64,000 nt of DNA from a virus (IMGVR_UViG_3300028591_005215:32001-96000); one strand, 5' to 3'. Shown: positions 2,220 through 63,447, counted from the first letter of the stretch. Notes: generated by a model from the sequence alone, not told the origin. Made by a program: numbers and translations.

Positions 2220-2645
2220 TCAAATTATATTTTCAATGGCTTCTTTATTAATTATTATTGTCCCAACATCCCCTTGCCTATTAAATTCTATGACATCATA
2301 TCCAAGTTTTTTTGCTTTATATAACACTTTGCATAAATAAGAAAGATAATTATCGTTTCTATTAGGCTTAATTCTCATTTTTCTTTCTGTCGCTATTTTT
2401 GCGCTTGGTTTCATTTGATATATTGTTATATGATTTCCATAATCCATAGCCAATGCCTTATCTTTTGAGACAAATAAGTTATTATCCCAAAATTCATTAC
2501 CAGTGGCAATGTGCCTTGTTTCATTAGGGACTGTTCCTCTATAATATATATTACCACCTTTATGATGGTTTTGGCTAAGTTTATTTGTTACTTCTTGTAT
2601 AACTTTTTTTACAATTATATTCAAATCTGATTCTGTTATATTCAT
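2220..2645 (-). CDS. ADP-ribosyltransferase-fold protein with head-protein leader
   Basis: MNITESDLNIIVKKVIQE leader; YYRGT...LFVSKDKALAMDYG...GYDVIEF pattern typical of small ART domains. Confidence 0.55.
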   Translation of the reverse strand: MNITESDLNIIVKKVIQEVTNKLSQNHHKGGNIYYRGTVPNETRHIATGNEFWDNNLFVSKDKALAMDYGNHITIYQMKPSAKIATERKMRIKPNRNDNYLSYLCKVLYKAKKLGYDVIEFNRQGDVGTIIINKEAIENII

Positions 2646-2995
2646 ATTAAATGCATATTTTCTAATAAATAGTGTATAGAATCAATTTAATTGTACCATC
2701 TGCTATATTTTTTTATAAAAAAATGAATATTTTTTTTTCGAAGATTTATTATTTTACTAGCAAATAATAGCCTACACTATCGCCTTAATCACAACATTTT
2801 AAATATAGTGCTCAAAATTCTTCTTCCATATTTTGGGTAACATAATCGTACAAGTTATCTCTTGAGTCTTGGTCATAACAAGGATGATAATTTGGGCTAT
2901 CTAAATCCTTGTTGGTATATTTACTTTTTATTTTTCTTTTCATAATCAGTATAGTTTTTCATAAATTCTGCTAATGTAATAACATTATTCTAATT

Positions 2996-3295
2996 TTATT
3001 TTACTAACAAATTAGATACAAGTTTTCCTTCATTTAAAAACTTCTGTATTATATGATTATATTTTTCATCCCATGTCATCCAATGAAAAAGATTATGTCT
3101 TTTGCAATCCCAACGAAATGTGTTAATTAAATTTAAATATACTTCATTGCTGAATAAGAATTCACACAATGATTCTATTGTATTAAAGCTACCATAAAAT
3201 GAAGCTTGGTATAGTCCATTTTTAAAATCTTCATATATTTTATTTTTTATTAAAAATAATCTTAATATATACTCTACATCTTTATTGCTAATCAT
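2996..3295 (-). CDS. tandem paralog family member 12
   Basis: LFLIKNKIYEDF...FRW...W..WDEKY. Confidence 0.8.
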   Translation of the reverse strand: MISNKDVEYILRLFLIKNKIYEDFKNGLYQASFYGSFNTIESLCEFLFSNEVYLNLINTFRWDCKRHNLFHWMTWDEKYNHIIQKFLNEGKLVSNLLVK

Positions 3296-3567
3296 TTTTT
3301 TAATAAATTATTTATTAGTTTTGATTTGCTGTGCCATTCCATACTTATTTGAACCCAGTTGTCATAATCATCTATGAATACTTCCCAAGGAAATGCATAA
3401 CCTACTAATTCTGAATAACATTCTCCTACGTGTGTTAATAAGAAGTTTTCAAAATTGCTATCAACATATACATATTTAAATGCTTTAATATATTTTTCAT
3501 ATATGTTTCTTTTGATAAGAAATAATTTAAATAAAATTATCCTATCTTCCATAATGTTTTTATCCAT
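3292..3567 (-). CDS. tandem paralog family member 11
   Basis: LFLIKRNIYEKY...AFPW...W...W. Confidence 0.8.
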   Translation of the reverse strand: MDKNIMEDRIILFKLFLIKRNIYEKYIKAFKYVYVDSNFENFLLTHVGECYSELVGYAFPWEVFIDDYDNWVQISMEWHSKSKLINNLLKK

Positions 3568-3794
3568 TTTTTATGTATTTCTGACCAATTTACAAAATCA
3601 TTATACATTTTGTTTTCATTTAGCCAACCGAAAGCAACAAATACCCAATCAGTGGAACGTCTCGTATTAGCGAAATGTTTTATATCAATACCATTAGGCT
3701 TGTGCAAGGTACGTAGTGATAAAATATAACGTTCATAGGCATTATTCTTGATGAGAAGCAATTTAAATATTATTAGTATTTCATCTTTTTTCAT
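3537..3794 (-). CDS. tandem paralog family member 10
   Basis: LLLIKNNAYERY...AFGW...W...KKW. Confidence 0.8.
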   Translation of the reverse strand: MKKDEILIIFKLLLIKNNAYERYILSLRTLHKPNGIDIKHFANTRRSTDWVFVAFGWLNENKMYNDFVNWSEIHKKWIKTLWKIG

Positions 3795-4099
3795 TTTAAA
3801 TATTTTTTATTAAACTTTATTGCACTTTTCACCCATTTCCCATTACATCTACACCAATCAACATAGTTGCCATTCATTTCATTTTCCTCTTCCCAATTGA
3901 AAGCACCCATTATAAAATTTAATGGGGAACGGCTCTTAGTAAGAGAATCTAAATCAATATTAAGCGATTTATGAAGTGATTCTATAAATCTATCATATAA
4001 ACCACATTTTTTTAAGAATAGCACAAGCAATATTTTTTCTTCAGCATGCATATTTTTTTTTCCTATAAATGAAAACAGTATTTGTCTATATCTGTACAA
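3791..4099 (-). CDS. tandem paralog family member 9 (true start probably the internal MHAEE)
   Basis: LFLKKCGLYDRF...AFNW...W...GKW. Confidence 0.75.
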   Translation of the reverse strand: MYRYRQILFSFIGKKNMHAEEKILLVLFLKKCGLYDRFIESLHKSLNIDLDSLTKSRSPLNFIMGAFNWEEENEMNGNYVDWCRCNGKWVKSAIKFNKKYLK

Positions 4100-4386
4100 C
4101 TTCTTTTAAAGTTCGCTTTGACTATTTTATACCATTTATCATGATACAATGACCAACGTATATAATCTTTATAGTGCTTATTTTCATAATCCCATACAAA
4201 AGCACAACGTATCAGTGATTTTAATAAATTCATGTTTCGTATATTTTCAGACAAATATTGCGAAAAACTTATTTTATCAGCATCTATTGTAAGGTTGAAT
4301 CCTTCTTTAAATCTATCATATATTTTATTCTTAATCAAAAAGACTATGAAAATCGTCTCCGTGTCTTTGTAAGAAAGATAATACAT
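4063..4386 (-). CDS. tandem paralog family member 8
   Basis: VFLIKNKIYDRF...AFVW...W..YHDKW; close paralog of 4409-4720. Confidence 0.8.
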   Translation of the reverse strand: MYYLSYKDTETIFIVFLIKNKIYDRFKEGFNLTIDADKISFSQYLSENIRNMNLLKSLIRCAFVWDYENKHYKDYIRWSLYHDKWYKIVKANFKRSCTDIDKYCFHL

Positions 4387-4408
4387 AATTAATTTTTTAT
4401 ATTTAGTT

Positions 4409-4720: not shown

Positions 4721-4721
4721 A

Positions 4722-5263: not shown

Positions 5264-5265
5264 AC

Positions 5266-12141: not shown

Positions 12142-13200
12142 ATGAAAAATATTAAAAGTATTATAACTGAAGAAATAAATAAGTTTGTTAATGAGGTTAA
12201 ATACATTGACAATGCTTATGGTAAAGATACGATGCCACCTTTACCTGGCGAAAAACACCCTTATAAAGTTGTCGGCAAAACAAATTGGACTGATAGATAT
12301 GAACAGGAACCTATAAAGAATAGTGATAAGATTAGAGTGTTTCATAAATGTAACATGAACACTGCTATGCAATTTGCTTTATATGGCACAAGTGGTAAAG
12401 TATATGCAAAAAGAGCATTTTCATATGAATCAGGGATGAATCCTAAAGGAATATTTGTAACTACTGATTTTAATGTAGCTAAGAATGGTTCATTTGCTTC
12501 ACACGGTGTGATTATTGAATTTACTGCAAGTGCTACTGACCTTGATACACCTGTTTGGAATGGGCAAGGAACGTATTTTGGGCAAGGAACTCAGCCTATG
12601 CCTTTTGCTAATAAGTCTGAAAGGGATGCACAAAAAAAGAAATATAATGATGATGCAAGGAGTGTAGAAGATGAAAGATATTTTAATTATCAAACTAAAA
12701 AGGACGATGTAATTTCATATGACTATATAAGGAATAGTGATAATCCTGCAATGGCTTATAACATATTTAATAACAACGAACATCAAGCTTTATTCCTTGG
12801 TGATTTGAACCCTAATATGATTAAACGTTTCTGGGTCAAGGAAGAAAACAGTGAACAATACGTACCTTATAAAAGGGTTGACTTCATAAGGAAATTTAAA
12901 GAAAAAGAAAAGGAAGAATATAAACCTGAATATTCTGATATATTTAATCCTAACGATGATTTTTCTTGGAATAAATTAGCTAAATACGAATATAATTTTG
13001 ATAGTTACTACTGCAAGAAAAACAATATATCTTTTGAGGAGTATCTTAATAAAAACTTTAAAGAAATGAAAGATACAATATTATATTATGCTGAAAATAA
13101 TCCTTATGAGTTGAGATATTATTTCTGGCCAAAACAATTGATACAAATTCTTGGTAAAGAAAAATATTTGGAAACGTTTGGTGGCATAATGGGCGTTTAA
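12142..13200 (+). CDS. ART-fold-like protein with head-protein leader (start revised from 12103 to 12142)
   Basis: MKNIKSIITEEINKFVNE; VFH..GIFVTTDFNVAK..VIIEF..EHQALF; ATATTTAT at 12109. Confidence 0.55.
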   Translation: MKNIKSIITEEINKFVNEVKYIDNAYGKDTMPPLPGEKHPYKVVGKTNWTDRYEQEPIKNSDKIRVFHKCNMNTAMQFALYGTSGKVYAKRAFSYESGMNPKGIFVTTDFNVAKNGSFASHGVIIEFTASATDLDTPVWNGQGTYFGQGTQPMPFANKSERDAQKKKYNDDARSVEDERYFNYQTKKDDVISYDYIRNSDNPAMAYNIFNNNEHQALFLGDLNPNMIKRFWVKEENSEQYVPYKRVDFIRKFKEKEKEEYKPEYSDIFNPNDDFSWNKLAKYEYNFDSYYCKKNNISFEEYLNKNFKEMKDTILYYAENNPYELRYYFWPKQLIQILGKEKYLETFGGIMGV

Positions 13201-13205
13201 CGCAT

Positions 13206-17189: not shown

Positions 17190-18359
17190 TCACTTACCTT
17201 TTAACTTTTGCATAATACCATTATGGAAAAATATAGAATCACCTCCCATTTCCCTTACAAAATCAGTTAGCATTTTAACGCAATTTAGTGCATCATCACT
17301 TTCTGCATAATCGCAGTTTAATTTTTTAATTCCTTCTTGCGCTTTACTTGAAAGTATATTTAATTCTTCTCCACCTAATTCGTCTGAATATAATTCACTT
17401 GCCATTTGTACCATAGGTGTTGAATAATTTGATAATCCATAATCATCAAGATATTCTTCTGCTATATTAATAGCATCGACTTTAAATGCAAATGGTGCAT
17501 TATCATCCATCATAACATAGTACAGCCCCATAAATAATGCAACATTACAAATACAAGATGTTACTTCTTTACTAAAGTCATATTGATTGGTTTGATTTAT
17601 ATTAATTAAATCACTTGGTAGAATTTGAATTTCATTTCTATTGCTTGCAAAATCTTCCATAGTTCCATAAAAATGGAAAATATCATGATGTTCAGTAAAA
17701 TAATCTTTTATATTATTTAATTCTCTTAATATAACTTTTTTATAAGACCCTCTATCTTTAGCTGATTTTGCTATTAATATATCTATTCTTTTAATATATT
17801 TTTTAGCACCATTTATAAATGGTTTATCTGAAAATATTCTATCCTCATTTTCGATTTGTGCTTGATATTTTAATTGATTAGAACCTTGTAAGTTGTGAAG
17901 ATTTGTCACTGACTTATCCTTCCAAATGTTATTTATCCCATTTAAAGCACTTTGTTTAGTTGAAAACTCTCTTTTATCCCTGTCTTTTAAATCTATATAA
18001 TTATAATCGCTATCATCACCATCTATGGTGTTATATTTATCAGGCCATCTAAAAAAGTTAACAGGTTTTCCCCTATAATTATTAGACAATAAATCACCAT
18101 CAAGTGTTAGTCTTACAAATCCATTTGAAACCCAAGAATTATAACCTATATATGGGTTTGATGCTCTTGTAACTGACATAAAGAATCTTCTTTTTGGCTG
18201 ATTCCAATGTTCACTTTTAGAAACGGCATTTGTTTTTAGAATAAATCTGTCACTCTTAATAATTTTAACAAAATTATCCAACCCTGTAAAATGAAAACAA
18301 ATACTTGAAATGCTTTCATTTAATGTGTTTTTAACTATATCTCCAAAATTAAAGTCCAT
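17190..18359 (-). CDS. ART-fold-like protein with LNE leader
   Basis: IVKNTLNES; FHFT...FMSVTR...RLTLDG...ENEDRI (H-S-ExE pattern); ATATTTAT upstream. Confidence 0.55.
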   Translation of the reverse strand: MDFNFGDIVKNTLNESISSICFHFTGLDNFVKIIKSDRFILKTNAVSKSEHWNQPKRRFFMSVTRASNPYIGYNSWVSNGFVRLTLDGDLLSNNYRGKPVNFFRWPDKYNTIDGDDSDYNYIDLKDRDKREFSTKQSALNGINNIWKDKSVTNLHNLQGSNQLKYQAQIENEDRIFSDKPFINGAKKYIKRIDILIAKSAKDRGSYKKVILRELNNIKDYFTEHHDIFHFYGTMEDFASNRNEIQILPSDLININQTNQYDFSKEVTSCICNVALFMGLYYVMMDDNAPFAFKVDAINIAEEYLDDYGLSNYSTPMVQMASELYSDELGGEELNILSSKAQEGIKKLNCDYAESDDALNCVKMLTDFVREMGGDSIFFHNGIMQKLKGK

Positions 18360-20224: not shown

Positions 20225-21940
20225 ATGGCTAATAATATAAATATGTCAGCTAGAGTAAAAATGGTATATAGTGATAAAACAAATGCTATATATTTCAATG
20301 TGCATCTACCTGATGAATCTAAAATACAAGATATAGTAGACATATTAGATGATGAAAATTTTATTGCTAATTTAATGTCAAGCATAGACTCAAAAACAAA
20401 TCAAACTGTTAGGGAAAAAGGTGCTTATGAGGTTATTTTTCCTGCTTTAGATAAAGACGGTAAATATAACATTAAAATACCAAGGGATGGTAAGCCTGAA
20501 GACTGGGTACCTATAGATTGGGAAGAGTTTATGGATGATTATGCAGAGGATAAAAGCATTTTAAATGAATTATTTGACGTTATCGAAAGGTATGGATATA
20601 CTGTTAATCCATATGATAAAAAAATGGCTTCATCTACACCATTTGTTATCGAAAAAACGATAGAAGCGTTAAATCAACCAATTAACGAAAATATGGCTAA
20701 TATGGCCGAAGCTATTTTTGCAAATATTCATAATCCTGAAATACAAAAAATGTTAAATGGAATTAGAATAGCATCAGATTCCGTAGATGATATGCAAAAT
20801 AGCATAGGTAATGCGGAATTTGGTAGTGCTAAGTATATTTTAGCAACGAAAGCGTTAAGTGAAAAAAATACAGTGTGGATTCTTTCTCAATGGTTAACTT
20901 ATAATAGACCAGGTGCGCCAACTTTGATTGCCACATCAAATCAATGGAATGAAATTGGGTGTGAAGTTGTTAACCCAAATTATCCATTAAGAGCACGTAA
21001 GCCATATAGTTATAATGGTAATGAAATGGGTGATGATGAAGCTGAAGCAAAATTAGGTGTTGATAGAGATACAGCGTATAAAATGGATAAAGGTGTTGGA
21101 AAAGCATGGGATAGATTCAGTAGTTTCCAAAGATATAATGATGGGAATTTCACACAAGTTATTTATTGGGACATACAAGATGTACAAGTAGTTGACCAAC
21201 GTCTTTGGCAAGAATTCCAAGAAGATGCCAATATGGAAAATATGTCGCATAAGTTTAATCAAAAAGCGCTTGATTTAATGTCTGATGACGAAAAAAATTC
21301 TATTGGTAATGAAATCAGCACACAGGATGATAATACACAAAACGGCAATGATGATGAAAACATGATAGCTGATAACGCAGTTAACATTGAATTAACAAGA
21401 GAAGCATTATTAGACTTAATAGGTGATAACCCAATATATAGCGACACTGTTAAGCTTATTAAATCACGTCCTGATAATATTAGTGATATATTACGTTCAT
21501 ATTTTATGCACGAACCTAATATTGACCGTGAAAAAAACATTAAATTGAAAAATTCAAAAATTGAAATTTGTAATGGTGCTGTTCAAATGACGTTAAGAAT
21601 TGGTCTTGCAGATGTAAGAAATAAATGGAGAGAAGTAGCTAATAGCTTCAAAGATATACATGAACTTACTGAAATGTATAGTAATGTGGCAAAGGTAATC
21701 AATGCAGTTAAAGCTAAGCAAAAAGAATATGTTATGAAAGAAAATAGGGTGATTAATGAAGGAAATGAATTCACTTTTAACGATTTTTTAAATTGTTTGG
21801 GAATTTCAGAAAATGATTTAGAAAAACAAATTCAACATAATCAACAAATGGCAATGGAACAAAAGCAAATAAAATCCAAATTTTACAAAATGTGGAACAA
21901 AATAATTGAAGCTAACAATTTAAATCATGGGGTTATTTAA
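20225..21940 (+). CDS. hypothetical protein with ArdC-N-like ssDNA-binding domain
   Basis: LSEKNTVWILSQ..PTLIATSNQWNEIGCEV..P...IYWDIQDV resembles the ArdC-N signature; ATATTTAT at 20183. Confidence 0.5.
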   Translation: MANNINMSARVKMVYSDKTNAIYFNVHLPDESKIQDIVDILDDENFIANLMSSIDSKTNQTVREKGAYEVIFPALDKDGKYNIKIPRDGKPEDWVPIDWEEFMDDYAEDKSILNELFDVIERYGYTVNPYDKKMASSTPFVIEKTIEALNQPINENMANMAEAIFANIHNPEIQKMLNGIRIASDSVDDMQNSIGNAEFGSAKYILATKALSEKNTVWILSQWLTYNRPGAPTLIATSNQWNEIGCEVVNPNYPLRARKPYSYNGNEMGDDEAEAKLGVDRDTAYKMDKGVGKAWDRFSSFQRYNDGNFTQVIYWDIQDVQVVDQRLWQEFQEDANMENMSHKFNQKALDLMSDDEKNSIGNEISTQDDNTQNGNDDENMIADNAVNIELTREALLDLIGDNPIYSDTVKLIKSRPDNISDILRSYFMHEPNIDREKNIKLKNSKIEICNGAVQMTLRIGLADVRNKWREVANSFKDIHELTEMYSNVAKVINAVKAKQKEYVMKENRVINEGNEFTFNDFLNCLGISENDLEKQIQHNQQMAMEQKQIKSKFYKMWNKIIEANNLNHGVI

Positions 21941-23312
21941 TAATGTAGTAGAAAACGTATTATGTGAAACTAAAAAGAAAGAAACGTTTAATTATGATTC
22001 CATTCCAGAAAGTGATTTTGTAAATGGCCCTGTGTATGTTTACCATATGACATCAGAAAATAACCTTAAAGGTGGCATTCTTAAATCAGGATGGGAAAGT
22101 TTTTATAATTTGGTTAATTCATATGGCCCTGGTATATATACCACAATATACCCAAGCTTTGACCCAAGAGCTGAAGTTAAAGATGAAAATGGCAATCCAA
22201 ACCCAACATTGGACTATGATGGTGGCACGTCAAGATATAGTGCAAGACGTTGGATTTATGGTGAAAAAGATAACAAAGGTGGTGGACGTGGTAAACCTGC
22301 TGTTATGATTGCTTGTAAAACAATTAATCCAAAACCTTTTTGGAGCTTTGTTATTTTAGATGAAAAAATAGCTAAACAAGTATATAGAAGACATTGGAGG
22401 TTAGAAGACCAACTTAAATTAATATTAGGTGATAAATTATATTCTTATGCCGAAAGAAAATTTGGACATAATTTAATACACCTTTACAATGCAGGAAGGC
22501 GATTAACATATGAAAGGGGTGATGTTGCATATAGCATTGACCATATGCTTTGCAGTGATTTGATGCTTAATAGAAAAATAAAAGGTATTATTTTCCACGG
22601 TCCTGGTGATGGATTTGTTGCAATATTCAGGGACTACAACGCATTACAGCCTTTTGCTGTTAGTGATGATTGTGGACATACATTTAGAGAACTAAATGTT
22701 GAGCATACTTACGAAGAATATAATAATAACAATGTTGACGTTAGAAGTGCTTTAGGTCTTGATAGATTCTTCTTTGTTAAAAAAGACACAATTAAACCTG
22801 AGTATATTGGCAGATTAAAAGGTGTTCCTTTTAAATATCTTAGTAGTGTGTTTTACGGTGATTATGCTATGGTAGGTGATACTGATAATCCGCAAATAAG
22901 AAGAGAAACAATTGGTGGCAGACCTTATAGTTTTATAACAACTGAAAATAAAAATGAATGGAAATGGAACTTTATTTACAAGCCTTTAATTAATTCTTCA
23001 GAAGATTATAATGATATTCTTGTTAGTAAACATATATGGTTTGATACAGTTTCAGAAGTTTGGAATAAGAATACTTGCCTTGTATCTAAAGATAATAAGC
23101 TATATTATATAATAAATAAAAGTGGAACATTCTTCTTATATGATAATAAAGGTATAGAAATAGGCGATTTAGCTAACATAACTGACGCTGATTTAATAAA
23201 CGCAGAAGAAACTAATGATAAGCAAAATGAACCTAAAAATGAGCCCAATAATACTGATAACAAATCAGTTAAGAAAGTAAGACCTAAACGAATATTTGGC
23301 TTAAAAAAATAA
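21927..23312 (+). CDS. ART/PARP-fold-like protein with C-terminal WG-like repeats
   Basis: VYHMT..GILKSG..YGPGIYTT..KGIIFHG..DG; ends KRIFGLKK. Confidence 0.55.
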   Translation: MGLFNNVVENVLCETKKKETFNYDSIPESDFVNGPVYVYHMTSENNLKGGILKSGWESFYNLVNSYGPGIYTTIYPSFDPRAEVKDENGNPNPTLDYDGGTSRYSARRWIYGEKDNKGGGRGKPAVMIACKTINPKPFWSFVILDEKIAKQVYRRHWRLEDQLKLILGDKLYSYAERKFGHNLIHLYNAGRRLTYERGDVAYSIDHMLCSDLMLNRKIKGIIFHGPGDGFVAIFRDYNALQPFAVSDDCGHTFRELNVEHTYEEYNNNNVDVRSALGLDRFFFVKKDTIKPEYIGRLKGVPFKYLSSVFYGDYAMVGDTDNPQIRRETIGGRPYSFITTENKNEWKWNFIYKPLINSSEDYNDILVSKHIWFDTVSEVWNKNTCLVSKDNKLYYIINKSGTFFLYDNKGIEIGDLANITDADLINAEETNDKQNEPKNEPNNTDNKSVKKVRPKRIFGLKK

Positions 23313-34611: not shown

Positions 34612-34986
34612 CTACTTTTCTACAATAGAACCTTCCTTAGTAATATTATGATAATACCAAGCCTTGATTACTTTTTTTAAGAAATCATCACGTTCTTTTT
34701 TATCTGAAATTAAATTTTTAAATTCTTCTTGAACAACATAAAATAATTGCGTTGCAGTCAGTAACTTAGCAACCTCTTTTTTAGGGGTTAACCAAGCTAC
34801 TAATTCTTTGTTTGTCGGATGCCCATTATCATCATAAGAATTTTCATCTGCCCTTGAAAAACTCCCATCAAGAAACTTAACTACTGATAAAACCTTATCT
34901 GATTCATCACCATTAGTTAATGATTCATTCAAAATTGCTGAAAAAAGGACACCACGTTTATTTTCACTTATTATGATTTTCTTCAT
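34612..34986 (-). CDS. hypothetical protein with head-protein leader
   Basis: MKKIIISE...ILNES; ATATTTAT upstream. Confidence 0.75.
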   Translation of the reverse strand: MKKIIISENKRGVLFSAILNESLTNGDESDKVLSVVKFLDGSFSRADENSYDDNGHPTNKELVAWLTPKKEVAKLLTATQLFYVVQEEFKNLISDKKERDDFLKKVIKAWYYHNITKEGSIVEK

Positions 34987-43782: not shown

Positions 43783-46761
43783 ATGAAAAAAATAATATTA
43801 AATGAACATAAACTTTTAAATTTAAGAGAAAGTATAATAAACGAGCTTAATTTGAATCCAGAGTCAGACATGGGTTCAAATAATGATGTGTTTTATTTTG
43901 CTTTATATAAAGGTGATATTGCTATATACACAGATGATAACCCATTATCATTAAAAAGCATGTTAAATAGTCATAAGAGCGAATTAAAGGATTATTTAAA
44001 TGATTTAGATGTAGCAATTGAAAATCATGATATTGAAAATTATACAAAAATATTAGGCTCTAATTTCCCAAGACTTGTAACAGGCTGTTTCTATGGTAAT
44101 ACTTTAGAAATCACGCCTAATAGCACATATAATGTTTTAAACTCTACTGAACTCTATTCATTAAGTAAAATGTTTAGTTTAGATTACGTAAATGTTTATT
44201 ATGGGTCTAAAAAAATAAAAACTTCACAAATAAATAGAAATATAGAAAAACCAAAATCTTTTTATCATGGTACTACTTTAAAATTTGCAGAAGGAATACT
44301 TAAAAAAGGATTAAGAAGTAACCCTGAAAAAAGTAGATGGGATATTAAGCATAATGATACTGTGTTCATAACATCAAGCTTTGATATTGCAATGGAATAT
44401 GCTTCTATTGTTTCTGGTGATATGCCAATTAATGAAAAAAAATTTTATCCTTGTGTTATAGAATTTGATGGTGATAAACTTGATGAAAATAAATTTGTGT
44501 TTGACTATGATACATATAATTCTTATGCAAATGAAAGATTTGATAATGTGTATAACAACCAAATGGAAAAAAATGGTATAGACTATACTGATTACCATAA
44601 AGCAGATGCTATTGATAAAAAAGAAAACCCTGCTAAATATACAAAAATAGGGTATCGTGGGATTATTCACCCTAATGCTATTAAAAGTATTTGTATAGAC
44701 GGAATGCATGGGAAGGAATTTTATACGCCTCAAGAATATTTTAACAGTAAATATTACCAACTAAAAGAATCTAAACCTGATGGATATATAGGTGCTGAAG
44801 GTGATGGTGGTAGCAATGAATATTTTCATGTAGAACAAAATATTGAAGAAAATCAAGAATCGGAAGTAAAGGCTGATGAAGTAAGCCTTGACTCCTTTAA
44901 AAAAGAAGATACTTTAGCACCTAAAATTTGGAAAGGTGATAAATTAAATTCTAAAGTAAGGCTAAAACTATTAGATATTGCTGATGATTTTTGGGAAACT
45001 GTTAACGTTAATTGGGTTAAAAGAAAAGGTATTATTTTAACAGGTTCAATTTGTAATTACAATTGGTCTAAATTTTCAGACATTGATTTGCACATAATTG
45101 TAGATTTTTCTGAAGTTGATGAAAGGACAAATTTTGTTCAAGAATATTTCAATTCAAAAAAGAATGAATGGAATAATGAACATGAAGGGTTAAAAATTTA
45201 TGGTTTCAATGTTGAAGTATACGTAGAAGATATAAATGCTGAAACTGAATCTGGTGGGTTGTATGATTTGGAAGACAATAATTGGATAAAAAAACCTAAC
45301 CCGAATGATATACATTCCATTGCGCCTGACAGTAAAGAAATTAAACTTAAATCATCAAAAATAATGACTAAAATTGATGATTATATTGATTTAATGAATT
45401 CTACAAATGATGATGCACAACTAAGAAAAATTGGTAAGAAGGCACACAAATTGTTGAATAAGATTAAATCAATGCGTAAATTAGGCTTAAAGCGTGGAGG
45501 TGAAACTGACCCGTATAATATTATATATAAGGTATTAAGGAGAACTGAATATCTTGATAAGCTATGGGATATTTCAAGTAAATTGTATGATAAGCTTAAT
45601 TCTATCACTGAAAGTAGAATAATAAATGAATCTGCTTCAGTAGATTTATCAGAAGTAGGTGAAGTAGAATGGGAATTATCAATTGACCAAGATGATTATA
45701 AAGAATATCTTGAAGAAAATGGACTTGAAAATAGCAATGAAGTTTTAGCTGCGTATGTTAAAAACGAATTCCCTACTTTTGAATTAACATATTATGATAA
45801 TGAAGATTATCATTATTGTGGTGGCGATAGTGTTTATTGGGATGATTTGGTAGATATTTTTGGCGAAGATTGGGCTGAAAAAATGCTTAACACTTTCATA
45901 CAAAAAGGCGAAATAGATAAATACGACTTCTTCTCATACACAGGAAGATTTGAAACTTGCGAAATGTATGAAGATAGCCCTATAGATATTAACAATCCAT
46001 ATGAATTAAATTATCGTGCGTTACAATTATTTAGGCACGGTGGTTATTTTAAAGGCTGTAGGGGCTTTATTTTATCTGATGGTAACATTATATATACCGA
46101 AGGTGAACACAACGAAGTAACACGAATAAATGGTATTGATGATAAATTCCAATTTATTAAACTTGGTAACATTAGAATAATGCCTAATTCTATAGACATT
46201 GGCAGAGAGCCAACTTATGAGCAAAAAGAAGTTCTTAGAAAAGTTATAGCATCTTATTCTGATGAAGAATTATATATGGATGTATACAATGAAAAGGTAG
46301 GCGATGCTGGCGCCAAATATGTATGTCCTGATTGGAGATATGTGATTGGCGAGATAGATAGATTCTATGATAAAGGAATTAAGCCAATGGGTAGAAATGT
46401 CTATGAAAATAAAGGATATGTATTTGAGGAAGTAGTTGCTGATGGCAATTCTGAGCATAACCCATATATTAAAAAATGGAAGCACCAAAAAGATATACTT
46501 AGGAATTATATTATACAAACAGGCGAAATAATGCAAAGCATGGAGAACGGTAAACTTTACAAAGTTTTATATGATAAAGATTTATCTGTGTATTTGGGTG
46601 TTGAATATGCATATTGTATACAATATGACCCTAATAAATTGAAGCCTATAGGCGCAATATATATAAGACCATTAAGTTCTTTTACGTATGTAGTACAAAA
46701 TATTGAATATGACACAAGAGGGCATGATAATATTGAAGGTACTTCTGATGATATTGAATAA
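43783..46761 (+). CDS. polyvalent protein: leader + ART-fold domain + Pol-beta-type nucleotidyltransferase + unknown domains
   Basis: MKKIILNE; FYHGTT..GILKKGL..VFITSSFDIAMEYA; LTGSICNYNWSKFSDIDLH..VEVYVE; internal LKE/IEE/ITE/INE sites. Confidence 0.75.
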   Translation: MKKIILNEHKLLNLRESIINELNLNPESDMGSNNDVFYFALYKGDIAIYTDDNPLSLKSMLNSHKSELKDYLNDLDVAIENHDIENYTKILGSNFPRLVTGCFYGNTLEITPNSTYNVLNSTELYSLSKMFSLDYVNVYYGSKKIKTSQINRNIEKPKSFYHGTTLKFAEGILKKGLRSNPEKSRWDIKHNDTVFITSSFDIAMEYASIVSGDMPINEKKFYPCVIEFDGDKLDENKFVFDYDTYNSYANERFDNVYNNQMEKNGIDYTDYHKADAIDKKENPAKYTKIGYRGIIHPNAIKSICIDGMHGKEFYTPQEYFNSKYYQLKESKPDGYIGAEGDGGSNEYFHVEQNIEENQESEVKADEVSLDSFKKEDTLAPKIWKGDKLNSKVRLKLLDIADDFWETVNVNWVKRKGIILTGSICNYNWSKFSDIDLHIIVDFSEVDERTNFVQEYFNSKKNEWNNEHEGLKIYGFNVEVYVEDINAETESGGLYDLEDNNWIKKPNPNDIHSIAPDSKEIKLKSSKIMTKIDDYIDLMNSTNDDAQLRKIGKKAHKLLNKIKSMRKLGLKRGGETDPYNIIYKVLRRTEYLDKLWDISSKLYDKLNSITESRIINESASVDLSEVGEVEWELSIDQDDYKEYLEENGLENSNEVLAAYVKNEFPTFELTYYDNEDYHYCGGDSVYWDDLVDIFGEDWAEKMLNTFIQKGEIDKYDFFSYTGRFETCEMYEDSPIDINNPYELNYRALQLFRHGGYFKGCRGFILSDGNIIYTEGEHNEVTRINGIDDKFQFIKLGNIRIMPNSIDIGREPTYEQKEVLRKVIASYSDEELYMDVYNEKVGDAGAKYVCPDWRYVIGEIDRFYDKGIKPMGRNVYENKGYVFEEVVADGNSEHNPYIKKWKHQKDILRNYIIQTGEIMQSMENGKLYKVLYDKDLSVYLGVEYAYCIQYDPNKLKPIGAIYIRPLSSFTYVVQNIEYDTRGHDNIEGTSDDIE

Positions 46762-48913: not shown

Positions 48914-49357
48914 ATGAAAAAAATAATTTTTGAAAAAAGACAACTTAAACTTATAGAAAATGAATTAACGTTTAATTCAGATTCTTTAAATAACGGTACA
49001 AATATAAATAAAGAAGCTAATGTAACGCCTTCAGCAACAGGTAGTTCTAATATTTCAAGTGATTTAAATACTGCTAAGGCTGATAATCCTGAAGCAAATA
49101 CATTTAATGTTAATTTATCAAACTATGCTGATAAAAATAAATCAGTTACACCAACAATTGCTAATTTTAATGTTAACGGTACTTCAGATGCGTCTAAAAC
49201 AATAGACAGTGCAATTAAATCTGACCCACAATTGGCTGCTGCTGTAAACAATGGCACTGCAATAGGTAAAATACATATGAAAGGTGCGTCAACTAATTTA
49301 GGGGAATCAATTAATTTTACTAAAAAAGAATTAGATAACTTTTTAAAAAAATTATAA
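48914..49357 (+). CDS. hypothetical protein with head-protein leader
   Basis: MKKIIFEKRQLKLIENE; ATATTTAT at 48889. Confidence 0.75.
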   Translation: MKKIIFEKRQLKLIENELTFNSDSLNNGTNINKEANVTPSATGSSNISSDLNTAKADNPEANTFNVNLSNYADKNKSVTPTIANFNVNGTSDASKTIDSAIKSDPQLAAAVNNGTAIGKIHMKGASTNLGESINFTKKELDNFLKKL

Positions 49358-49358: not shown

Positions 49359-51455
49359 ATGAAAAAAATTATAATATCTGAAGAAAAATTAACATCACTA
49401 AAGAATTTTATGGATGAAAAGTTACCTGATTATGTATATCAGTCAGTTAAAACTCATAATACTTCTTTAGGTGAAAGTCCATGCTTCCCGCCTTCATCAG
49501 ATTATGATTTTGATTATAAGCTTCTTAAACAAAGATATTCTGAATTAATTGAGAATATGAAAGAATATGAATTACCTTTAGATGATATTGAAGCCGAAAA
49601 TTTGTTATATAAATTGACAACAAAAGCAATGTCAATTGAAAGAGGTATTAGACCTCATTTAAATAAGTTAGTTGAAAATGTTATTAACAAATTATTTGCT
49701 GTACCTCAGGAAACAATTAATTTAACTTGTGAGTTAACTGATAACGTAGCCCCACAAAAATCAATAAGGGTAATTCCTGAAGATGGCAGCGATAATGATG
49801 AATATACATTTAACGATGTAGATGAAATTTCGCAAGTTAATGATATTGTAAAACAAAGAAGGTTTATTAATTCATTGATACAAGGTTATTCTGTTATAGA
49901 ATCCGAAAACGATGAGAACTACGCTGATTTTTTTATAAGCCACGGATTGGAAAATTTACTTGATTTGTATGCAAAGATTAATACGCTGAATGATTATTTA
50001 ATTTTCACAAAGGAAGAAAAAATAGATAAAAAAAATCCAACATTAGTATCATATGTAGAAGTGCATTTAGGACATGGGGATAATAAAACTGTTATCAAAT
50101 CACAGGGTATAATATTCCCTTATCTTTTAAAGGAGACAATACGTGGATTTATGGAATTATTTTCTTCACATGGCTTACCTGAAGATAATCATAAAGCGCA
50201 AGCAATTATTAAACGTTCAGATTTTACAATGGCTGAACCTTGGGATATAAGATTGGGTGTTCCATTGTGGAATAAAATGTTTGGCAAATATCATATTCTA
50301 TCAAATATGATTCCTTATTTCTTTGCACAATATTGCTCTGAAGAAAAAGATACATTCTTCGATATAACAAAAAACATATTAGCTAATACAAGAAAAGGGA
50401 AAGAATATTTATTAAGTTCTACGGAAAATATAGAACATGATATGCAATATCAAGAATTCTTAGATAGTATATCACAAAAAAATGTTGATAATTCTCTAAT
50501 CAGTGATGGGTATATGACTGCTGATGAATTAGATAGTTACACTATTTCAGAAGAAGGCAACATCGAAGAAAATCAAGAAAACGAATATAATGATTCTTAT
50601 CATTTATCACCTTTAAAAAATCATTTGACGAATGATGATGGAATGGAAAATGTGAAAGGCTTCTATAACAACGCTGGCATGTTTGTTGATAATTACTTTA
50701 AGTATGCTGTTGATGTTAAAGACCGTGAAAAATTAAACAGTGGCAGCTTAGACTTTGAAGAGACTATTGGAATTCTTAAAAAATACCCAGAAGTGTTAAA
50801 AGCTTTTATCGAAAAATGTAATAGGTTAGCGATAGAAAGAAATGTAACAAATACATTGTTAGATTACAATAGAAATATAGACATTAATAAAGAATGGCTC
50901 ATTCATTTTACACCTGTGCCAGCTGATATTGCATTAAACGGCTTTGCTAAAGGAACATCAGATTATACTGATTTAGGAATAACGCATGGTTCATTTAAAA
51001 GAGAGGAAGGGTATAATTTTGCATTTACTGCTGATAATGCTAACGAAGAATATGCAAGGTATTATTGCGGTGATAATACGGATAATTGGGGAGCTGTTAT
51101 GTTTAAAGCAAATGGTGTAGAAGCATACCATGGTGGTGACAACCAATACCAAGTAATGTTCTGGGGACCATCGGCACGTGATATTGTCCCAATTTATTAT
51201 GGCGATATAAGTTATGATATTAATATGGACTATGAGGATGATTATTATGACACAAGAGGTAGTGCCGAAGATTGTTGGTATGTAATGGATGACAGGTCAC
51301 AACAGATTTATTACTCAAATGAATCATTGAAAGCTGTTGTTGAATGGGTTGAAAATAATTATTTTCAATATAAAGATAGATTAAATAATTACACTCACGC
51401 AAAATCCGACTATGTTAAGAAAAAGATGAATAATAATCAATGGCATACTTTTTAA
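49359..51455 (+). CDS. leader-bearing protein with C-terminal ART-like domain
   Basis: MKKIIISEE; WLIHFT..IALNGF..GYNFAF..QYQVMFWG. Confidence 0.6.
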   Translation: MKKIIISEEKLTSLKNFMDEKLPDYVYQSVKTHNTSLGESPCFPPSSDYDFDYKLLKQRYSELIENMKEYELPLDDIEAENLLYKLTTKAMSIERGIRPHLNKLVENVINKLFAVPQETINLTCELTDNVAPQKSIRVIPEDGSDNDEYTFNDVDEISQVNDIVKQRRFINSLIQGYSVIESENDENYADFFISHGLENLLDLYAKINTLNDYLIFTKEEKIDKKNPTLVSYVEVHLGHGDNKTVIKSQGIIFPYLLKETIRGFMELFSSHGLPEDNHKAQAIIKRSDFTMAEPWDIRLGVPLWNKMFGKYHILSNMIPYFFAQYCSEEKDTFFDITKNILANTRKGKEYLLSSTENIEHDMQYQEFLDSISQKNVDNSLISDGYMTADELDSYTISEEGNIEENQENEYNDSYHLSPLKNHLTNDDGMENVKGFYNNAGMFVDNYFKYAVDVKDREKLNSGSLDFEETIGILKKYPEVLKAFIEKCNRLAIERNVTNTLLDYNRNIDINKEWLIHFTPVPADIALNGFAKGTSDYTDLGITHGSFKREEGYNFAFTADNANEEYARYYCGDNTDNWGAVMFKANGVEAYHGGDNQYQVMFWGPSARDIVPIYYGDISYDINMDYEDDYYDTRGSAEDCWYVMDDRSQQIYYSNESLKAVVEWVENNYFQYKDRLNNYTHAKSDYVKKKMNNNQWHTF

Positions 51456-56468: not shown

Positions 56469-59400
56469 ATGGCAAGAAATCATACTATATTCCAAAATCT
56501 TGATAAAGCTTTTAGTGGTAATTGGAATGCTGAAGCATCTGCACCGCATATTAACTCATATGATATGTCAACTGCTGATAAAGGAATTCTATATAGAACT
56601 ACCAATAAGGCTGATTATGAAGAAAAGAAACTTGAATTACAGCAAAATAATTATCTTAAAGAAAGATGGATTAAGGCTAATGTAGACCTGTCAGTAACAG
56701 CATATTCAGGACTCAATAATGTAAAACTAATGTATCGTGATTGCGACCTTATGGACTCCTTCCCTGAAATTGGCGCTGCATTAGATATTGTGTCTGAAGA
56801 ATCTACATGTTTAGATGCTAAAGGTCAAATTGTAACTGTATCATCTAAATCTGACAGAATCAAATCAATTCTTGAAGATTTGTTTGTGAATAGGTTAAAT
56901 TTACAGGTAACTGCACCTATGGTTATTAGGGCTATGTGTAAATATGGCAATCAGTTTATGCTGCTTGATATTGACAATAAGCTTGGTGTTAAGGGTTGGA
57001 AACAATTACCAGTGTTTAACGTTGAACGTATTGAAAATGGAGTTATGAATCCTTATGGAACAGGTGTATCTATGGCAGTATCTACGCAATCAGATTCAAG
57101 CAAGATTGACACTTCCACAAAATTCGTTTGGCTTGACGAAAGTAATTCACAAGTACCATTTAGAAATTGGCAAATAGCACACTTTAGATTGATGACAAAT
57201 TCAATTTATTTGCCCTATGGGTCCAGTTTTCTTAATTCTGCTAGAAGACACTGGAGAATGCTTTCCTTAATGGAGGATATGATGCTTATATATCGTTTGG
57301 AACGTTCTATTGAAAGACGTGTATATAAGATTTATGTAGGTGCTATTGATGATGCTGACGTACAGGCATATGTTGAAAATATTGCTAATAATTTCAAACG
57401 TACACCTATTATTGACCCAATGACAGGACAAATAGATTTAAGGAAAAATATCCTACCTGTGCATAAGGACACGCCAATTCCATTGTTGGATGGTAGAACA
57501 ATTACAATAGAGCAATTGTCTAAGGAATTCAATGAGGGAAAGGAAAATTATGTATATTCAATACAAGACAAAACATTAAAAATAGTCCCAGGGAAAGTAG
57601 TGTGGTGTGGAAAGAATTACACTGCTGAAAAACTCATTAGAATAACATTAGATGATGGGTCTCATTTTGATTTGGCAGCAGAACATGAGTTAATCATGAG
57701 GGATGGAACAAAGAAACGTGCTGATGAAGTATCAGTTGGGGAGTCAGTAATGCCTTTTTATCGTAAGGTTGACAAAGATAGCAAGAAACTTTTTGATAGA
57801 TATGAGAAAGTATTTAATCCGAATAGCGGTAAGTATGAGTTTACCCATAGAATTATTGCTGAGACAGTAGAAAAGGAAAATGACTTATATAATACAGTTC
57901 ATCATAAGGATTTTAATAAGTATAATAATTCACCATGCAATTTGATATGGATGGATTATCATGAACATCATAAGATGCATGGCGACTTGGCAAGAAACAA
58001 TTGGAAAGACCCAATAAAGAGAAAACGTCATATAGAAAATTTGTCAATGGCTTGTCGTGGCAGAATTATAACTGAAGAGACTAAGGATAAAATATCAAAA
58101 GCAATAAAGTCAAAGTATGAAAGCGGTGAATTTGATTTCGTTAAAGAAATTTCTAAAAAACATATAATTGGGTTTAACAAGTCTGAAAAAGCTATAGAGT
58201 GTAGAAGAAAACAAGGTATAAAGTTTGGGTATAGAGAAGAATTTAAGGTTTATAATGAGTCTGAATTACATAAACAACACGATGAAATACGTAAGGTTGC
58301 TACAGCTAAAAGTTGGGAAGGCAATGGAAGAACAAATAGGGTTCAAAAGATGAATATTCATTTCGATGATTTTATTTGGGACTCATTAAGGGATAATATA
58401 CTTCGCAAAAAGATTGATAGCCGTAAAACAATGCTTGAGTACATTAATAATAATTTGATTGACCATTTGATAGAAATAAATGACAACAAAAGATTAGAAA
58501 ACAATCATTTCATATCTAGAGAAGTATTAGAAAATAGAATTAGGGAACGTGGCTTCTGTACCATTACTGAATACGTTAAATCTATGCTAAAGAATCACAA
58601 AATAGTTAAAATTGAGACAATAGAAGGTGATGACGTATATTGTATGACTGTTGTTGGGCAAAATGGCGAAGAGGATAGGCATAATTTTGCAATTCGTTCG
58701 CTTAAAGGTGATGGTTCATTAAATGAAAGTGGTGTATTTGTGTCAAACTGCTGCGACCAAGATATCTTCATCCCTGTGCGTGACCAAAATGCACCAACAC
58801 CTATTGATACATTGTCTGCTGCGCAAAACTTGACTGCAATGGATGACATCAAGTTTGTACAGAATAAGGTTTGCACTGCGTTAAGAATTCCTAAGACATT
58901 TTTGAACTTTGAAGAAGCACAAGGGGATGGTAAGAACTTGGCACTTGAAGATATTAGATTCACAAGAACTGTTAATAAGATTCAGCAAGCATTTTTGATG
59001 GAATTAACTAAAGTTGCTTCGATTCATTTGTATTTGCTAGGATTTACTGATGATTTAACAAACTTTAGCTTGTCAATGACAAATCCATCTACACAGGCAG
59101 AACAACTTGAAATTGATAATATTCAGAAAAAGATTAGTGCTGCGAGAGACGCTATATCTGACCCAGGTAATGGCATACCTATAATGTCACAAACAAGGGC
59201 ATTGAAAGAAATTATGAAATGGTCTGACAAAGATATTAAAGACAACCTTGAAGAAATTCGTCTTGAAAAGGCAATTGCTGCTGAACTTGAAAAAACATCT
59301 CAAATCATTAAACGTACAGGCGTATTTGATACAGTTGACAGAATGTATGGCGAGCCAGGTGCTGAATATCAGGATGATGTACAGCAACAAGGTGATGATG

Positions 59401-59849
59401 GCATGGGTGGCGGCCTTGGAGGAGGTGGCGGTATGCCATCTGGAGGTGGCGACTTCGGTTCTGAATTAGATTCACTTGGTGCACCTGGTGCTGAAGATGA
59501 AGGTGAAATTGCAGGTAATGAAGGCTCTGAACCAACTATGGATATGGGTGGTGGAACTGATGACGTAGGTGCTGCACCTCCTATGGAAGGTGCTAATAAA
59601 TATAAGCCACTTATTAACGAAGTTAAAAAAGTGAAATATCGTGCCCCTGTAAAGCATAATGAAGCAAAGGTTGATTTATTGTTTGCACAATATTTTAAAC
59701 ACCTTAATGAAGATGAAAAAAAGAGGAAAGATGAAGCAAGAATAGAAAGAACTACTATCTATGATAAATCACTTATGATTAATGAAGAATTTAATAGGAT
59801 GATAGCAAATCTTGATAATAAGTTAAACGAAAAAAAAGAAGGGGATTAA
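56469..59849 (+). CDS. portal protein (T4 gp20-like) with intein
   Basis: PEIGAALDIVSEE, LPYGSS, LMEDMMLIYRLERS.ERRVY, DIFIPVR, ALRIPK, EDIRF; ATATTTAT at 56418. Confidence 0.9.
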   Translation: MARNHTIFQNLDKAFSGNWNAEASAPHINSYDMSTADKGILYRTTNKADYEEKKLELQQNNYLKERWIKANVDLSVTAYSGLNNVKLMYRDCDLMDSFPEIGAALDIVSEESTCLDAKGQIVTVSSKSDRIKSILEDLFVNRLNLQVTAPMVIRAMCKYGNQFMLLDIDNKLGVKGWKQLPVFNVERIENGVMNPYGTGVSMAVSTQSDSSKIDTSTKFVWLDESNSQVPFRNWQIAHFRLMTNSIYLPYGSSFLNSARRHWRMLSLMEDMMLIYRLERSIERRVYKIYVGAIDDADVQAYVENIANNFKRTPIIDPMTGQIDLRKNILPVHKDTPIPLLDGRTITIEQLSKEFNEGKENYVYSIQDKTLKIVPGKVVWCGKNYTAEKLIRITLDDGSHFDLAAEHELIMRDGTKKRADEVSVGESVMPFYRKVDKDSKKLFDRYEKVFNPNSGKYEFTHRIIAETVEKENDLYNTVHHKDFNKYNNSPCNLIWMDYHEHHKMHGDLARNNWKDPIKRKRHIENLSMACRGRIITEETKDKISKAIKSKYESGEFDFVKEISKKHIIGFNKSEKAIECRRKQGIKFGYREEFKVYNESELHKQHDEIRKVATAKSWEGNGRTNRVQKMNIHFDDFIWDSLRDNILRKKIDSRKTMLEYINNNLIDHLIEINDNKRLENNHFISREVLENRIRERGFCTITEYVKSMLKNHKIVKIETIEGDDVYCMTVVGQNGEEDRHNFAIRSLKGDGSLNESGVFVSNCCDQDIFIPVRDQNAPTPIDTLSAAQNLTAMDDIKFVQNKVCTALRIPKTFLNFEEAQGDGKNLALEDIRFTRTVNKIQQAFLMELTKVASIHLYLLGFTDDLTNFSLSMTNPSTQAEQLEIDNIQKKISAARDAISDPGNGIPIMSQTRALKEIMKWSDKDIKDNLEEIRLEKAIAAELEKTSQIIKRTGVFDTVDRMYGEPGAEYQDDVQQQGDDGMGGGLGGGGGMPSGGGDFGSELDSLGAPGAEDEGEIAGNEGSEPTMDMGGGTDDVGAAPPMEGANKYKPLINEVKKVKYRAPVKHNEAKVDLLFAQYFKHLNEDEKKRKDEARIERTTIYDKSLMINEEFNRMIANLDNKLNEKKEGD
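57456..58748 (+). mobile_element. Pro-initiated, class-3-like intein (431 aa) with HNH endonuclease in the portal
   Basis: NIL|PVHKDTPI..AAEH..HRIIAE..VHHKDFNKYNN..DVYCMTV..GVFVSN|C. Confidence 0.85.
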
Positions 59850-61853: not shown

Positions 61854-61928
61854 TCAGTAATGGTTAGTGTTTTTTTTATTTGACACTTTCAAAAAGAAAA
61901 TTATATTTTATATATAATATAAAATATA

Positions 61929-62357
61929 ATGGAACGATTGAGTAAAGAATTTAAATTGAATATTTCAAACAACATATCAGTAAAATATGGTTCAGTGGAC
62001 AAAAATAACCCTAAAGTAATCTATATTGAAGGTAAGTGTTGGGTTTCCCCTTTATTTGAAGGTGATTATACAGCGCACATTGATAATATAAAAGCACAAT
62101 TTAGGAAAGGTGTTAGTAAATTACTCATCTCAAATGAAGTATACTCTTCAAAATTTATTTTAGATTTTGATGTTAACACTGAAAATATGAAAATTGATGA
62201 AAAAAAATTTTTATCATTTAATATTTTTTTAAGACAAAAATCTAATTCATTATACGCATTAAAAGACTCAAAATTATACGAACATTTCCCAACAATGGTT
62301 AATATGCTATACAATTTATTAAATGAAAATGAATTTAGGGTTACAAAACGTAAATAA
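61929..62357 (+). CDS. hypothetical protein
   Basis: 142-aa ORF, VKYGSVDKNNPKVIYI. Confidence 0.75.
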   Translation: MERLSKEFKLNISNNISVKYGSVDKNNPKVIYIEGKCWVSPLFEGDYTAHIDNIKAQFRKGVSKLLISNEVYSSKFILDFDVNTENMKIDEKKFLSFNIFLRQKSNSLYALKDSKLYEHFPTMVNMLYNLLNENEFRVTKRK

Positions 62358-62386
62358 TAGATATTTATTACTAAAAATAAATTATC

Positions 62387-62707
62387 ATGAAGAAATTAAT
62401 TAGATTAACCGAAGGTGACTTACATAGAATTATAGAAAATAGCGTTAAGCACATTGTCAATGAAATTGGTGATAATAGAAAGAAAAGGATAAACGAAGCT
62501 GGTAATGATGATATTGAAAACGGCATTCGTGGTTATGAAGAATACAATGGTATGACTGATGATGAATATGATGATTATGCAAATTTCATAGGGAATCAGT
62601 ATGATGACGATGATATGCAGGATTATTTAAGCGATTTAGAAGCAGACCAATATATTGACGATGACGACCATATGCTTACTGACAATGAATTATATAATAA
62701 TTTCTAA
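62387..62707 (+). CDS. small acidic protein with head-protein leader
   Basis: MKKLIRLTEGDLHRIIENSVKHIVNE followed by a Asp/Tyr-rich tail. Confidence 0.8.
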   Translation: MKKLIRLTEGDLHRIIENSVKHIVNEIGDNRKKRINEAGNDDIENGIRGYEEYNGMTDDEYDDYANFIGNQYDDDDMQDYLSDLEADQYIDDDDHMLTDNELYNNF

Positions 62708-62721
62708 AACAATTAAATGAA

Positions 62722-63447
62722 ATGAAAGCATTTATATTAGATTACATATGTAAATTGGAGGGATATAAAACTGCAATAAAATCATTGCACTGGAATAGTT
62801 CAAGCCTTGAACAACATAAACTATGCGATGATATAGCAGATAGAATATCTGAATTCCAAGACCAAGTTTCTGAAGTTGAACAATCTATCAGTGGTAAATT
62901 GCCTTTCAATAAGTTAAAAGGAATTAATTATAAAATTTCAAATTTAAAAAAGTTTGTTGAAGATGTTATATCTGAAACAAATAAATTCCATAAAAAAATA
63001 AAAACCCAAGGTGATAAATATGTTGGTATGGCAAGTGATTGCGAATCATTTTTAAGTGATATCCAACGACAATTATATCTAGTTAAATTTACCATGAAAG
63101 AAAATAAAAAAAGATTGCATTCACTAATCAGTGAGTCAATTAGAAAAAGTTTAAATGAACTTTCTTTAGATACTATTAAGTCAGCATCACAGGAAAGTTA
63201 TCCGTTAAATCATACTAATGGTAGCATATTGTATGATAAATATTATAATATAACTATTAGTGAATTATATGATATGTTATCACATTATGAATCCAAAGGC
63301 AATAGGCAAGCTTCTGAATACGTGTCATATTTAGATGAAATATTGTCATTTGTTGATAGGAAAACAAATCAAGCTGAAAATTTTGAATATACTGCCGAAG
63401 ACATGGAAAGTCAGTATGAAGACCAAATAAAAAAACAAGAAACTTAA
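62722..63447 (+). CDS. Dps/ferritin-like four-helix protein with C-terminal extension
   Basis: LHWN....HKLCDD..D....FQD.VSE metal-ligand pattern; internal MKE/ISE/LNE sites. Confidence 0.6.
   Translation: MKAFILDYICKLEGYKTAIKSLHWNSSSLEQHKLCDDIADRISEFQDQVSEVEQSISGKLPFNKLKGINYKISNLKKFVEDVISETNKFHKKIKTQGDKYVGMASDCESFLSDIQRQLYLVKFTMKENKKRLHSLISESIRKSLNELSLDTIKSASQESYPLNHTNGSILYDKYYNITISELYDMLSHYESKGNRQASEYVSYLDEILSFVDRKTNQAENFEYTAEDMESQYEDQIKKQET

Follow-up and report, generated by a model that had tools for sequence, protein, structure and literature searches.

The stretch of viral DNA analysed here (IMGVR_UViG_3300028591_005215:32001-96000; hereafter the window, 64,000 nucleotides (nt) in full) encodes unrelated proteins that begin with a common N-terminal leader of about 26 residues, and this leader, designated class A, represents a real, widespread and undescribed family. 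The window comprises bases 32001-96000 of a single viral contig of 279,749 bp with a G+C content of 30.6%. Genes were called on the whole genome, and leaders were assessed by comparing sequence profiles with shuffled sequences. We consider that the leader is best explained as an elaborated capsid-address and cleavage tag, a reading to which we give somewhat better than even confidence.

Conservation and spread of the class A leader

A regular expression and a first hidden Markov model (HMM), applied to the whole genome, recovered eight copies of the class A leader at 54-64 bits, whereas the best score of any other protein was 10.8. The window contains two of the eight. The first occupies residues 1-26 (nt 32797-32874) of an orphan protein of 315 amino acids (aa), encoded at 31927..32874 on the minus strand, whose sole database match outside the leader is its own 97%-identical entry. 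The second (nt 62387-62464) begins a 106-aa acidic protein encoded at 62387..62707 on the plus strand, in the head module, within the interval between portal and protease. The sequence-only reading of this DNA had noted that these two proteins share a nearly identical 26-residue start on unrelated bodies, and this was borne out: with a broader profile built from 217 public copies, and with the window scored in six frames, the two leaders reached 50.1 and 50.6 bits, respectively, against a best value of 7.6 bits among the five-fold shuffles used as control.

The leader has a core L-T-E-S-D-L-H and three (I/L/V)-x-E motifs spaced about nine residues apart. Glu8 (of L-T-E) and Glu25 (which ends an (I/L/V)-x-E motif), with a further V-K-E between them, are invariant in the 217 best-scoring public copies, which were drawn from the 150 best-scoring proteins, so that the invariance is biased towards the profile. 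The hydrophobic spacing in the leader is that of an amphipathic helix, and the peptide is charged throughout; it lacks the hydrophobic core of at least 10 residues after a basic N-terminus that characterizes Sec and lipoprotein signal peptides. For the core set, a compositional artefact of starts of the type "MKK + hydrophobic" was ruled out, since signal-like N-termini scored far lower and shuffles reached at most 7.6-14.3 bits.

Among the eight genomic copies, synonymous codons vary at the invariant residues (four Leu codons are used at one position, for example), which shows that selection acts on the peptide itself and rules out a DNA-level repeat or a recent gene conversion. The cargos are unrelated, with no pair among 28 candidates matching by BLASTP at E<=0.01. 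These results show that the leader forms a family portable across unrelated cargo, and the earlier proposal of a modular tag was thus upheld. Pfam searches with 150 public leader proteins gave almost no matches, and the annotation of the cargos by Pfam and PHROG was almost empty.

When the eight-copy profile was compared with 1.84 billion representative proteins, 4,826 public clusters matched at E<=0.001 and 599 at E<=1e-10. The leader is N-terminal in 127 of the 224 domain matches among the top public matches, and the remainder include many internal copies, so the idea of a strictly N-terminal leader had to be given up. A full-text literature search with the leader motif strings retrieved no paper, and a comparative survey of jumbo phages makes no mention of such a tag.

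Prohead protease, head module and promoter-like motif

The window carries T4-type head genes, namely those for the large terminase and the portal, each with inserted intein or HNH modules, and just outside it lie the genes for a scaffold-like protein and for the major capsid protein, of the Gp23 family. The data point to a T4-like jumbo phage of about 280 kb with rumen Prevotella as its host, the latter because the leader was found in rumen Prevotella genomes (see below).

A gp21 homologue had been placed at 63679, and the profile searches agreed: the C-terminal part of a gp21-type prohead protease is encoded at 63679..64000 on the minus strand (Peptidase_S77, 75.4 bits, cut-off 27), and the gene continues past the window end to window position 64392. 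Aligned to the T4 gp21 structure 5jbl, the protein has His and Ser at the catalytic positions, taken as those known for T4 gp21; in the crystal structure these positions are occupied by Ala, in place of the mutated His, and Ser. T4 gp21 cleaves after L/I-X-E, N-terminal capsid targeting sequences of 10-19 residues load IPI-III into the T4 core, and gp21, gp22, gp67, gp68 and Alt are also found in that core (PMC9026906). When the capsid protein was compared with mature T4 gp23 the two were collinear and the mature N-terminus fell at residue 45, directly after T-I-K-E, with a weak N-terminal alignment of 11.5 bits; the G-I-K-E-N site of the capsid protein is kept in relatives. An I-x-E specificity is plausible for the predicted protease of this phage. 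The Glu motifs of the leader match the L/I-x-E cleavage motif, and we infer the same specificity as in T4.

In IMG/VR we found 264 confirmed leader stretches. Peptidase_S77 was present in eight of nine near-complete leader-bearing records (295-412 kb), and the ninth (G009, 95% complete) gave no protease or Clp match, a gap that is probably technical because its gp23 match is fragmentary. Scanning the genome and its relatives with a leader HMM, as the sequence-only reading had suggested, was productive, since five related genomes carry 9-26 copies each in addition to the eight found here. In four relatives (295-412 kb; loci L021, L033, L036 and L037), one to four leader genes stand between the orthologue of the 61929 gene and the protease, scaffold and capsid genes, as 62387 does in this phage. 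The 61929 gene (61929..62357, plus strand) encodes a conserved 142-aa head-module protein with 48% identity to its orthologue in relative G007, and it precedes the leader genes in the same place at the four loci. The fifth relative, G004, has no class A copy near the protease, and the arrangement is thus common, not universal. In T4 the counterpart position holds the core genes 67 and 68. The whole genome of G007 (295 kb) has 109 of 303 genes in common with this phage; it carries seven leaders of class A, of which four stand beside the protease, and its orthologues of 34612, 43783 (1954 aa) and 49359 retain leaders of the class B described below.

The portal gene that marks the head module (56469..59849, plus strand; phrog_213 portal, E = 2.3e-54) has an HNH/intein-like insert, with HNH families matching the central part of the protein. 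The terminase (52445-55522) and a UvrD-type helicase (27604-30300), both on the plus strand, are likewise enlarged by internal inserts of intein, HNH or endonuclease-like type, and several stand-alone endonuclease-like genes with similar N-termini are dispersed over the genome.

Most leaders had been said to follow the motif ATATTTAT, which stands at 62361-62368 ahead of 62387. In the AT-rich window this octamer proved to be barely enriched (37 observed vs 27.8 +/- 4.6 expected), and what survives of the claim concerns its core, TATTTAT, which peaks 21-33 nt before start codons and occurs 15-55 nt upstream of nine of 19 leader genes, compared with 39 of 284 others (Fisher p = 8e-4). It lies about 48 nt upstream of 31927 and is likewise found ahead of the protease and scaffold-like genes and of those for the tail tube, a tape-measure-like protein and a tail protein, a distribution that fits a putative late promoter. 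The spacer 32875-32932, between the divergent genes 31927 and 32933, contains a palindromic pair of TATTTAT motifs at 32905-32912 (plus strand) and 32917-32924 (minus strand). TATTTAT is also found upstream of a gene at 6624-10574 (minus strand) for a 1316-aa protein with BNR/sialidase-like repeats, which may be a glycan-binding fibre or decoration protein.

Class B, short and doubtful leaders and their cargos

The sequence-only reading had listed about 14 leaders in the window. Our profiles support eight of them, leave four marginal (12142, 33188, 48914 and the internal stretch of 32933) and give no support to two, 17190 and 21927, which could equally be chance resemblances. Besides the two class A leaders, four of the supported members belong to a second class, B, with "MKKII-SE..." starts. 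Class B members scored 15-23 bits in leave-one-out tests, against shuffle maxima of about 12, with 42579 and 48914 being weak. Alignment by eye matches class B to approximately the initial two-thirds of class A, with two gaps of one residue each, and the profiles of both classes recognise each other, the class B profile giving 14-21 bits on class A members. We also built a cleaner class B profile, trained solely on public orthologues of 49359 with the window's own protein excluded; its shuffle maximum was 14.3 bits and the next value 9.6, and true signal-peptide-like N-termini scored 3.9-5.2 bits.

The highest class B score, 33.7 bits, was that of the leader at nt 49359-49418, which begins a 698-aa protein (49359..51455, plus strand) composed of a conserved N-terminal module and a variable C-terminus. 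The leader at nt 34924-34986 scored 18.0 bits with the independent class B profile and begins a 124-aa protein (34612..34986, minus strand) beside the Clp ATPase genes, with ATATTTAT at 35009-35016. Another, at nt 43783-43845 (16.9 bits), is carried by a 992-aa protein (43783..46761, plus strand; phrog_36119, E = 1e-39) with a weak nucleotidyltransferase match (NTP_transf_2, 19.5 bits, below the cut-off). The fourth, at nt 43395-43463, precedes the rest of a 294-aa protein (42579..43463, minus strand) and scored 15.2 bits against a top shuffle of 14.3, or 9.4 bits when left out of the training set; TATTTAT lies 22 nt upstream. A PDB sequence search with 43783 and 49359 gave no matches.

The two remaining supported members depart from these forms. 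At 2220..2645 (minus strand), a short form of the leader (approximately residues 1-18, nt 2592-2645) is joined to a 141-aa cargo; it scored 12.6 bits, with no shuffle as high, and 14.0 bits in a combined A+B profile. In the AlphaFold model of this protein residues 5-28 form one helix, the model having a mean predicted local distance difference test (pLDDT) score of 48, too poor for a fold search. Similar motifs had also been reported inside 62722 and 32933, and here the first stood and the second remained marginal. The protein encoded at 62722..63447 (plus strand) consists of a DUF5856-like domain (E = 1.2e-6, below the Pfam cut-off), an internal leader copy (nt 63109-63174, 11.4-11.5 bits) and a C-terminal part, while the leader-like stretch that starts at nt 33044 within 32933..33148 (plus strand) scored 5.2 bits, with about 0.6 such matches expected by chance.

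Among the other marginal candidates, 33188..34009 (plus strand) scored 5.0 bits, with about 0.8 such matches expected by chance, and 48914..49357 (plus strand), in an apparent operon with 49359 and with ATATTTAT at 48889-48896, scored 4.5-5.5 bits, inside the shuffle range. The candidate at 12142..13200 (plus strand), whose start is favoured over 12103 by a promoter-like motif at 12109-12116, reached 8.0 bits with three of 3030 shuffles as high, and 1.1 bits against the class A public profile. The two unsupported members carry short N-terminal elements: that of 17190..18359 (minus strand) ends in L-N-E and is absent from the profile matches, and that of 21927..23312 (plus strand) ends in L-C-E, scored 4.9 bits (a level reached by 30 of 3030 shuffles), and had no match in the class A public profile.

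These six weak members are probably ordinary N-terminal helices of their own domains, which look tag-like through a proteome rich in I, L, K, N and E. Their scores lie within the shuffle range, and base rates in other genes are considerable: a single [ILV]xE occurs in the first 30 residues of 33% of them and a stricter short motif in 2.5%. At 2.5-3% per N-terminus, the short motif is expected to give about two chance cases among the roughly 70 open reading frames (ORFs) of a window. The orthologues of 17190 retain the short element, which directly abuts the conserved core domain, as expected for a helix of that domain. Two observations speak against this reading, however. The orthologues of 21927 in the relatives G003 and G008 retain the element, followed by a linker whose length varies, and a homologue of the 2220 cargo (55% identity) without the leader has a different N-terminus that nevertheless ends in L-R-E. 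Both cases hint at a possible minimal tag of T4 size.

As for the cargos, the family of 49359 numbers more than 200 proteins, in which the leader and an N-terminal module of about 400 residues are conserved while the C-termini vary; some of the latter match ART-PolyVal at 25.7-27 bits, below the cut-off of 31.2. The family is thus built like virion-delivered effector proteins. ART-PolyVal and MuF-fused proteins are probably delivered by the capsid, and Alt of T4 is a packaged ADP-ribosyltransferase (PMC5512222). The ESM Atlas ties the 2220 cargo to ART-PolyVal domains, some of them fused to the head protein MuF, and this lead suggests that the cargo may be an ADP-ribosyltransferase; hhalign comparisons of the 2220 family with the ART region of the 49359 homologues were negative and gave no confirmation, as was the same comparison for the protein at genome position 171501.

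The window also encodes a nicotinamide adenine dinucleotide (NAD) salvage module (13259-17083, minus strand), composed of a PnuC-type nicotinamide mononucleotide transporter (136.6 bits), a NadR-like adenylyltransferase/kinase and a TonB-dependent receptor with plug and barrel domains, which deserves mention in view of tagged cargos that may, in some cases, consume NAD as ADP-ribosyltransferases. Some twelve small paralogues (85-110 aa) with a common N-terminal hydrophobic/basic motif are arranged in tandem at 2996-6482 (minus strand), and one member of this array, searched against protein families, had no match.

Proposed capsid targeting, competing explanations and known systems

For the leader we infer a course of core binding, cleavage, packaging and ejection. 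The amphipathic helix of about 26 residues would bind some conserved component of the prohead core during assembly, and anything fused to it would thereby be taken into the head; cleavage by the gp21-type protease behind the invariant Glu residues would free the cargo, which would then be ejected along with the DNA. Class A (long) and class B (shorter) would represent two versions of one address and, as an added assumption, the internal copies would be cleavable joints in multi-part proteins.

The capsid targeting sequence of the T4 internal proteins, said to go back to Mullaney and Black in 1996, resembles the leader in several respects. Like this sequence in IPI-III and the propeptides that gp21 removes from Alt, gp67 and gp68, the leader is an N-terminal peptide in most, though by no means all, of its copies and is joined to otherwise unrelated proteins in a T4-type phage. 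It likewise ends in L/I-x-E, the motif cut by the gp21-family protease, some of the tagged genes adjoin the protease gene, the tagged set is polymorphic between related phages, and the tagged cargo probably includes host-modifying enzymes. The leader differs from the T4 sequence in that it hardly varies even between phages with no more than about a third of their genes in common, in having three cleavage-type motifs per tag, in its 8 to 26 copies per genome, in the existence of a second, shorter class and of internal and tandem copies, and in the copies carried by a bacterial transposon.

Several observations weigh against capsid targeting, in addition to the sampling bias in the Glu invariance mentioned above. 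The leader is two to three times longer than the T4 sequence (about 26 vs 10-19 residues), far more conserved and without sequence similarity to it. A single (I/L/V)-x-E is common, being present in 33% of the N-termini of the proteome. TATTTAT is missing from 10 of the 19 leader genes and precedes some non-structural genes. A tblastn search of 50,697 GenBank phage records returned only noise, and neither a cultured relative nor a proteome was found. The co-occurrence of leader and protease is not independent evidence, because the phages that carry the leader are all relatives of each other, and a Clp-type ATPase accompanies the leader equally well. The remaining points concern internal copies and bacterial copies. 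Of 59 internal copies in public proteins, at least 26 lack a Met in the vicinity, and the 580-aa orthologue of 62722 in G007 contains two internal copies (19.4 and 10.6 bits), each after E-S-K. Fused gene calls could account for some multi-leader proteins only: a Trp upstream, possibly a misread TGA stop, was seen in 17 of the 59, and such calls are insufficient given the copies without nearby Met and the G007 protein with two copies.

The internal copies behave like domains, and this would suit a helix that is a permanent docking or oligomerisation handle instead of a removed propeptide, for example a tag for the ClpA/B-like unfoldase of the phage or a coiled-coil partner of a hub outside the capsid. 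The heptad-like hydrophobic spacing and the extreme conservation, which suggests a large fixed interface, point in the same direction. The window contains a ClpA/B-like AAA+ ATPase spread over three ORFs (35761-39998, minus strand), one of which has a weak Intein_splicing match (20 bits, below the cut-off); in four of the five relatives the ATPase is uninterrupted, with about 830-850 aa, and is as conserved as the protease. A Clp gene adjoins the class B gene 34612 and, likewise, its orthologue in G007, and a role for phage Clp ATPases in translocating proteins as virions assemble has been suggested (PMC7824862). We nevertheless judge a docking handle unlikely, since it explains neither the invariant Glu residues in (I/L/V)-x-E register nor the clustering of leader genes by the protease, scaffold and capsid genes, nor the promoter-like motif that they have in common. 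The Clp route and the capsid route are, in any case, compatible with each other.

A pattern-limited search of 185,579 bacterial species genomes detected the leader at 27 loci, nearly all in rumen Prevotella, where no capsid is present; cultured isolates are among them, namely MA2016, tf2-5 and Segatella bryantii DSM 11371. At about 14 of the 27 loci, an IS1595 transposase (146 bits) is located just downstream in convergent orientation, an association not foreseen by the sequence-only reading, and several of the IS1595 passenger proteins have a domain of about 200 residues, of no known family, ahead of the leader. A decayed transposon of the IS1595 type is also present, at genome positions 197273-198320 of this phage (window coordinates 165273-166320, outside the window) and at loci L122 and L134. 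Its passenger at 197273 has the 200-aa domain, then the leader and then a variable tail, shares 92% identity with the Prevotella sp. MA2016 copy and adjoins a transposase remnant. Taken together, the Prevotella loci, the convergent transposases and this phage copy could mean that the leader serves the mobile element, as an IS1595 passenger acting in transposition or in conflict between element and host, and that the phage copies result from secondary spread. This is highly improbable in our opinion: no transposase lies near the two class A copies of the window and the whole genome has a single remnant, the phage genomes carry 9-26 copies each, some of them in a conserved head module, and the bacterial matches are few in comparison with the 4,826 clusters overall.

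Capsid targeting also invites comparison with other delivery systems. Head and ejection proteins of phiKZ, 201phi2-1 and SPN3US have propeptides cut at S/A-x-E (PMC9026906, PMC5694885). These are also jumbo phages, with many processed head proteins and with propeptides that contain several redundant Glu-ending sites; unlike the leader, their propeptides are diverse in sequence and include no single portable tag, the motif is S/A-x-E and the phages belong to another lineage. The family of 49359 resembles the MuF-fused and polyvalent effectors (PMC5512222) in joining a constant carrier to variable effector domains, ART-PolyVal among them, with presumed capsid delivery. The carrier here, in contrast, is a short helix, or a 400-residue module that starts with it, and not a MuF or portal domain, and no MuF domain was detected by Pfam in the tagged proteins of the window or in the 150 public leader proteins.

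A bolder extension, to which we assign only a slim chance, would make the tag a general pass into the heads of a large group of jumbo phages from gut and rumen, one that bacteria or their transposons exploit. Tagged proteins expressed by IS1595 elements of Prevotella chromosomes would be loaded into the heads of infecting phages, either to sabotage the phage, as a Trojan-horse defence, or to let the element travel, and with leader-cargo polyproteins in tandem a single gene would supply several effectors for packing, which would be new. That a host transposon carries the tag does raise the question of whether phage capsids are put to use by hosts or mobile elements for proteins of their own. 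If the leader indeed directs proteins into the head, thousands of small unannotated proteins would become candidate injected effectors of abundant gut and rumen phages, representing a large untapped source of anti-defence and host-takeover functions, and a defined peptide of 26 residues would be available for loading chosen proteins into phages of Prevotella and related bacteria.

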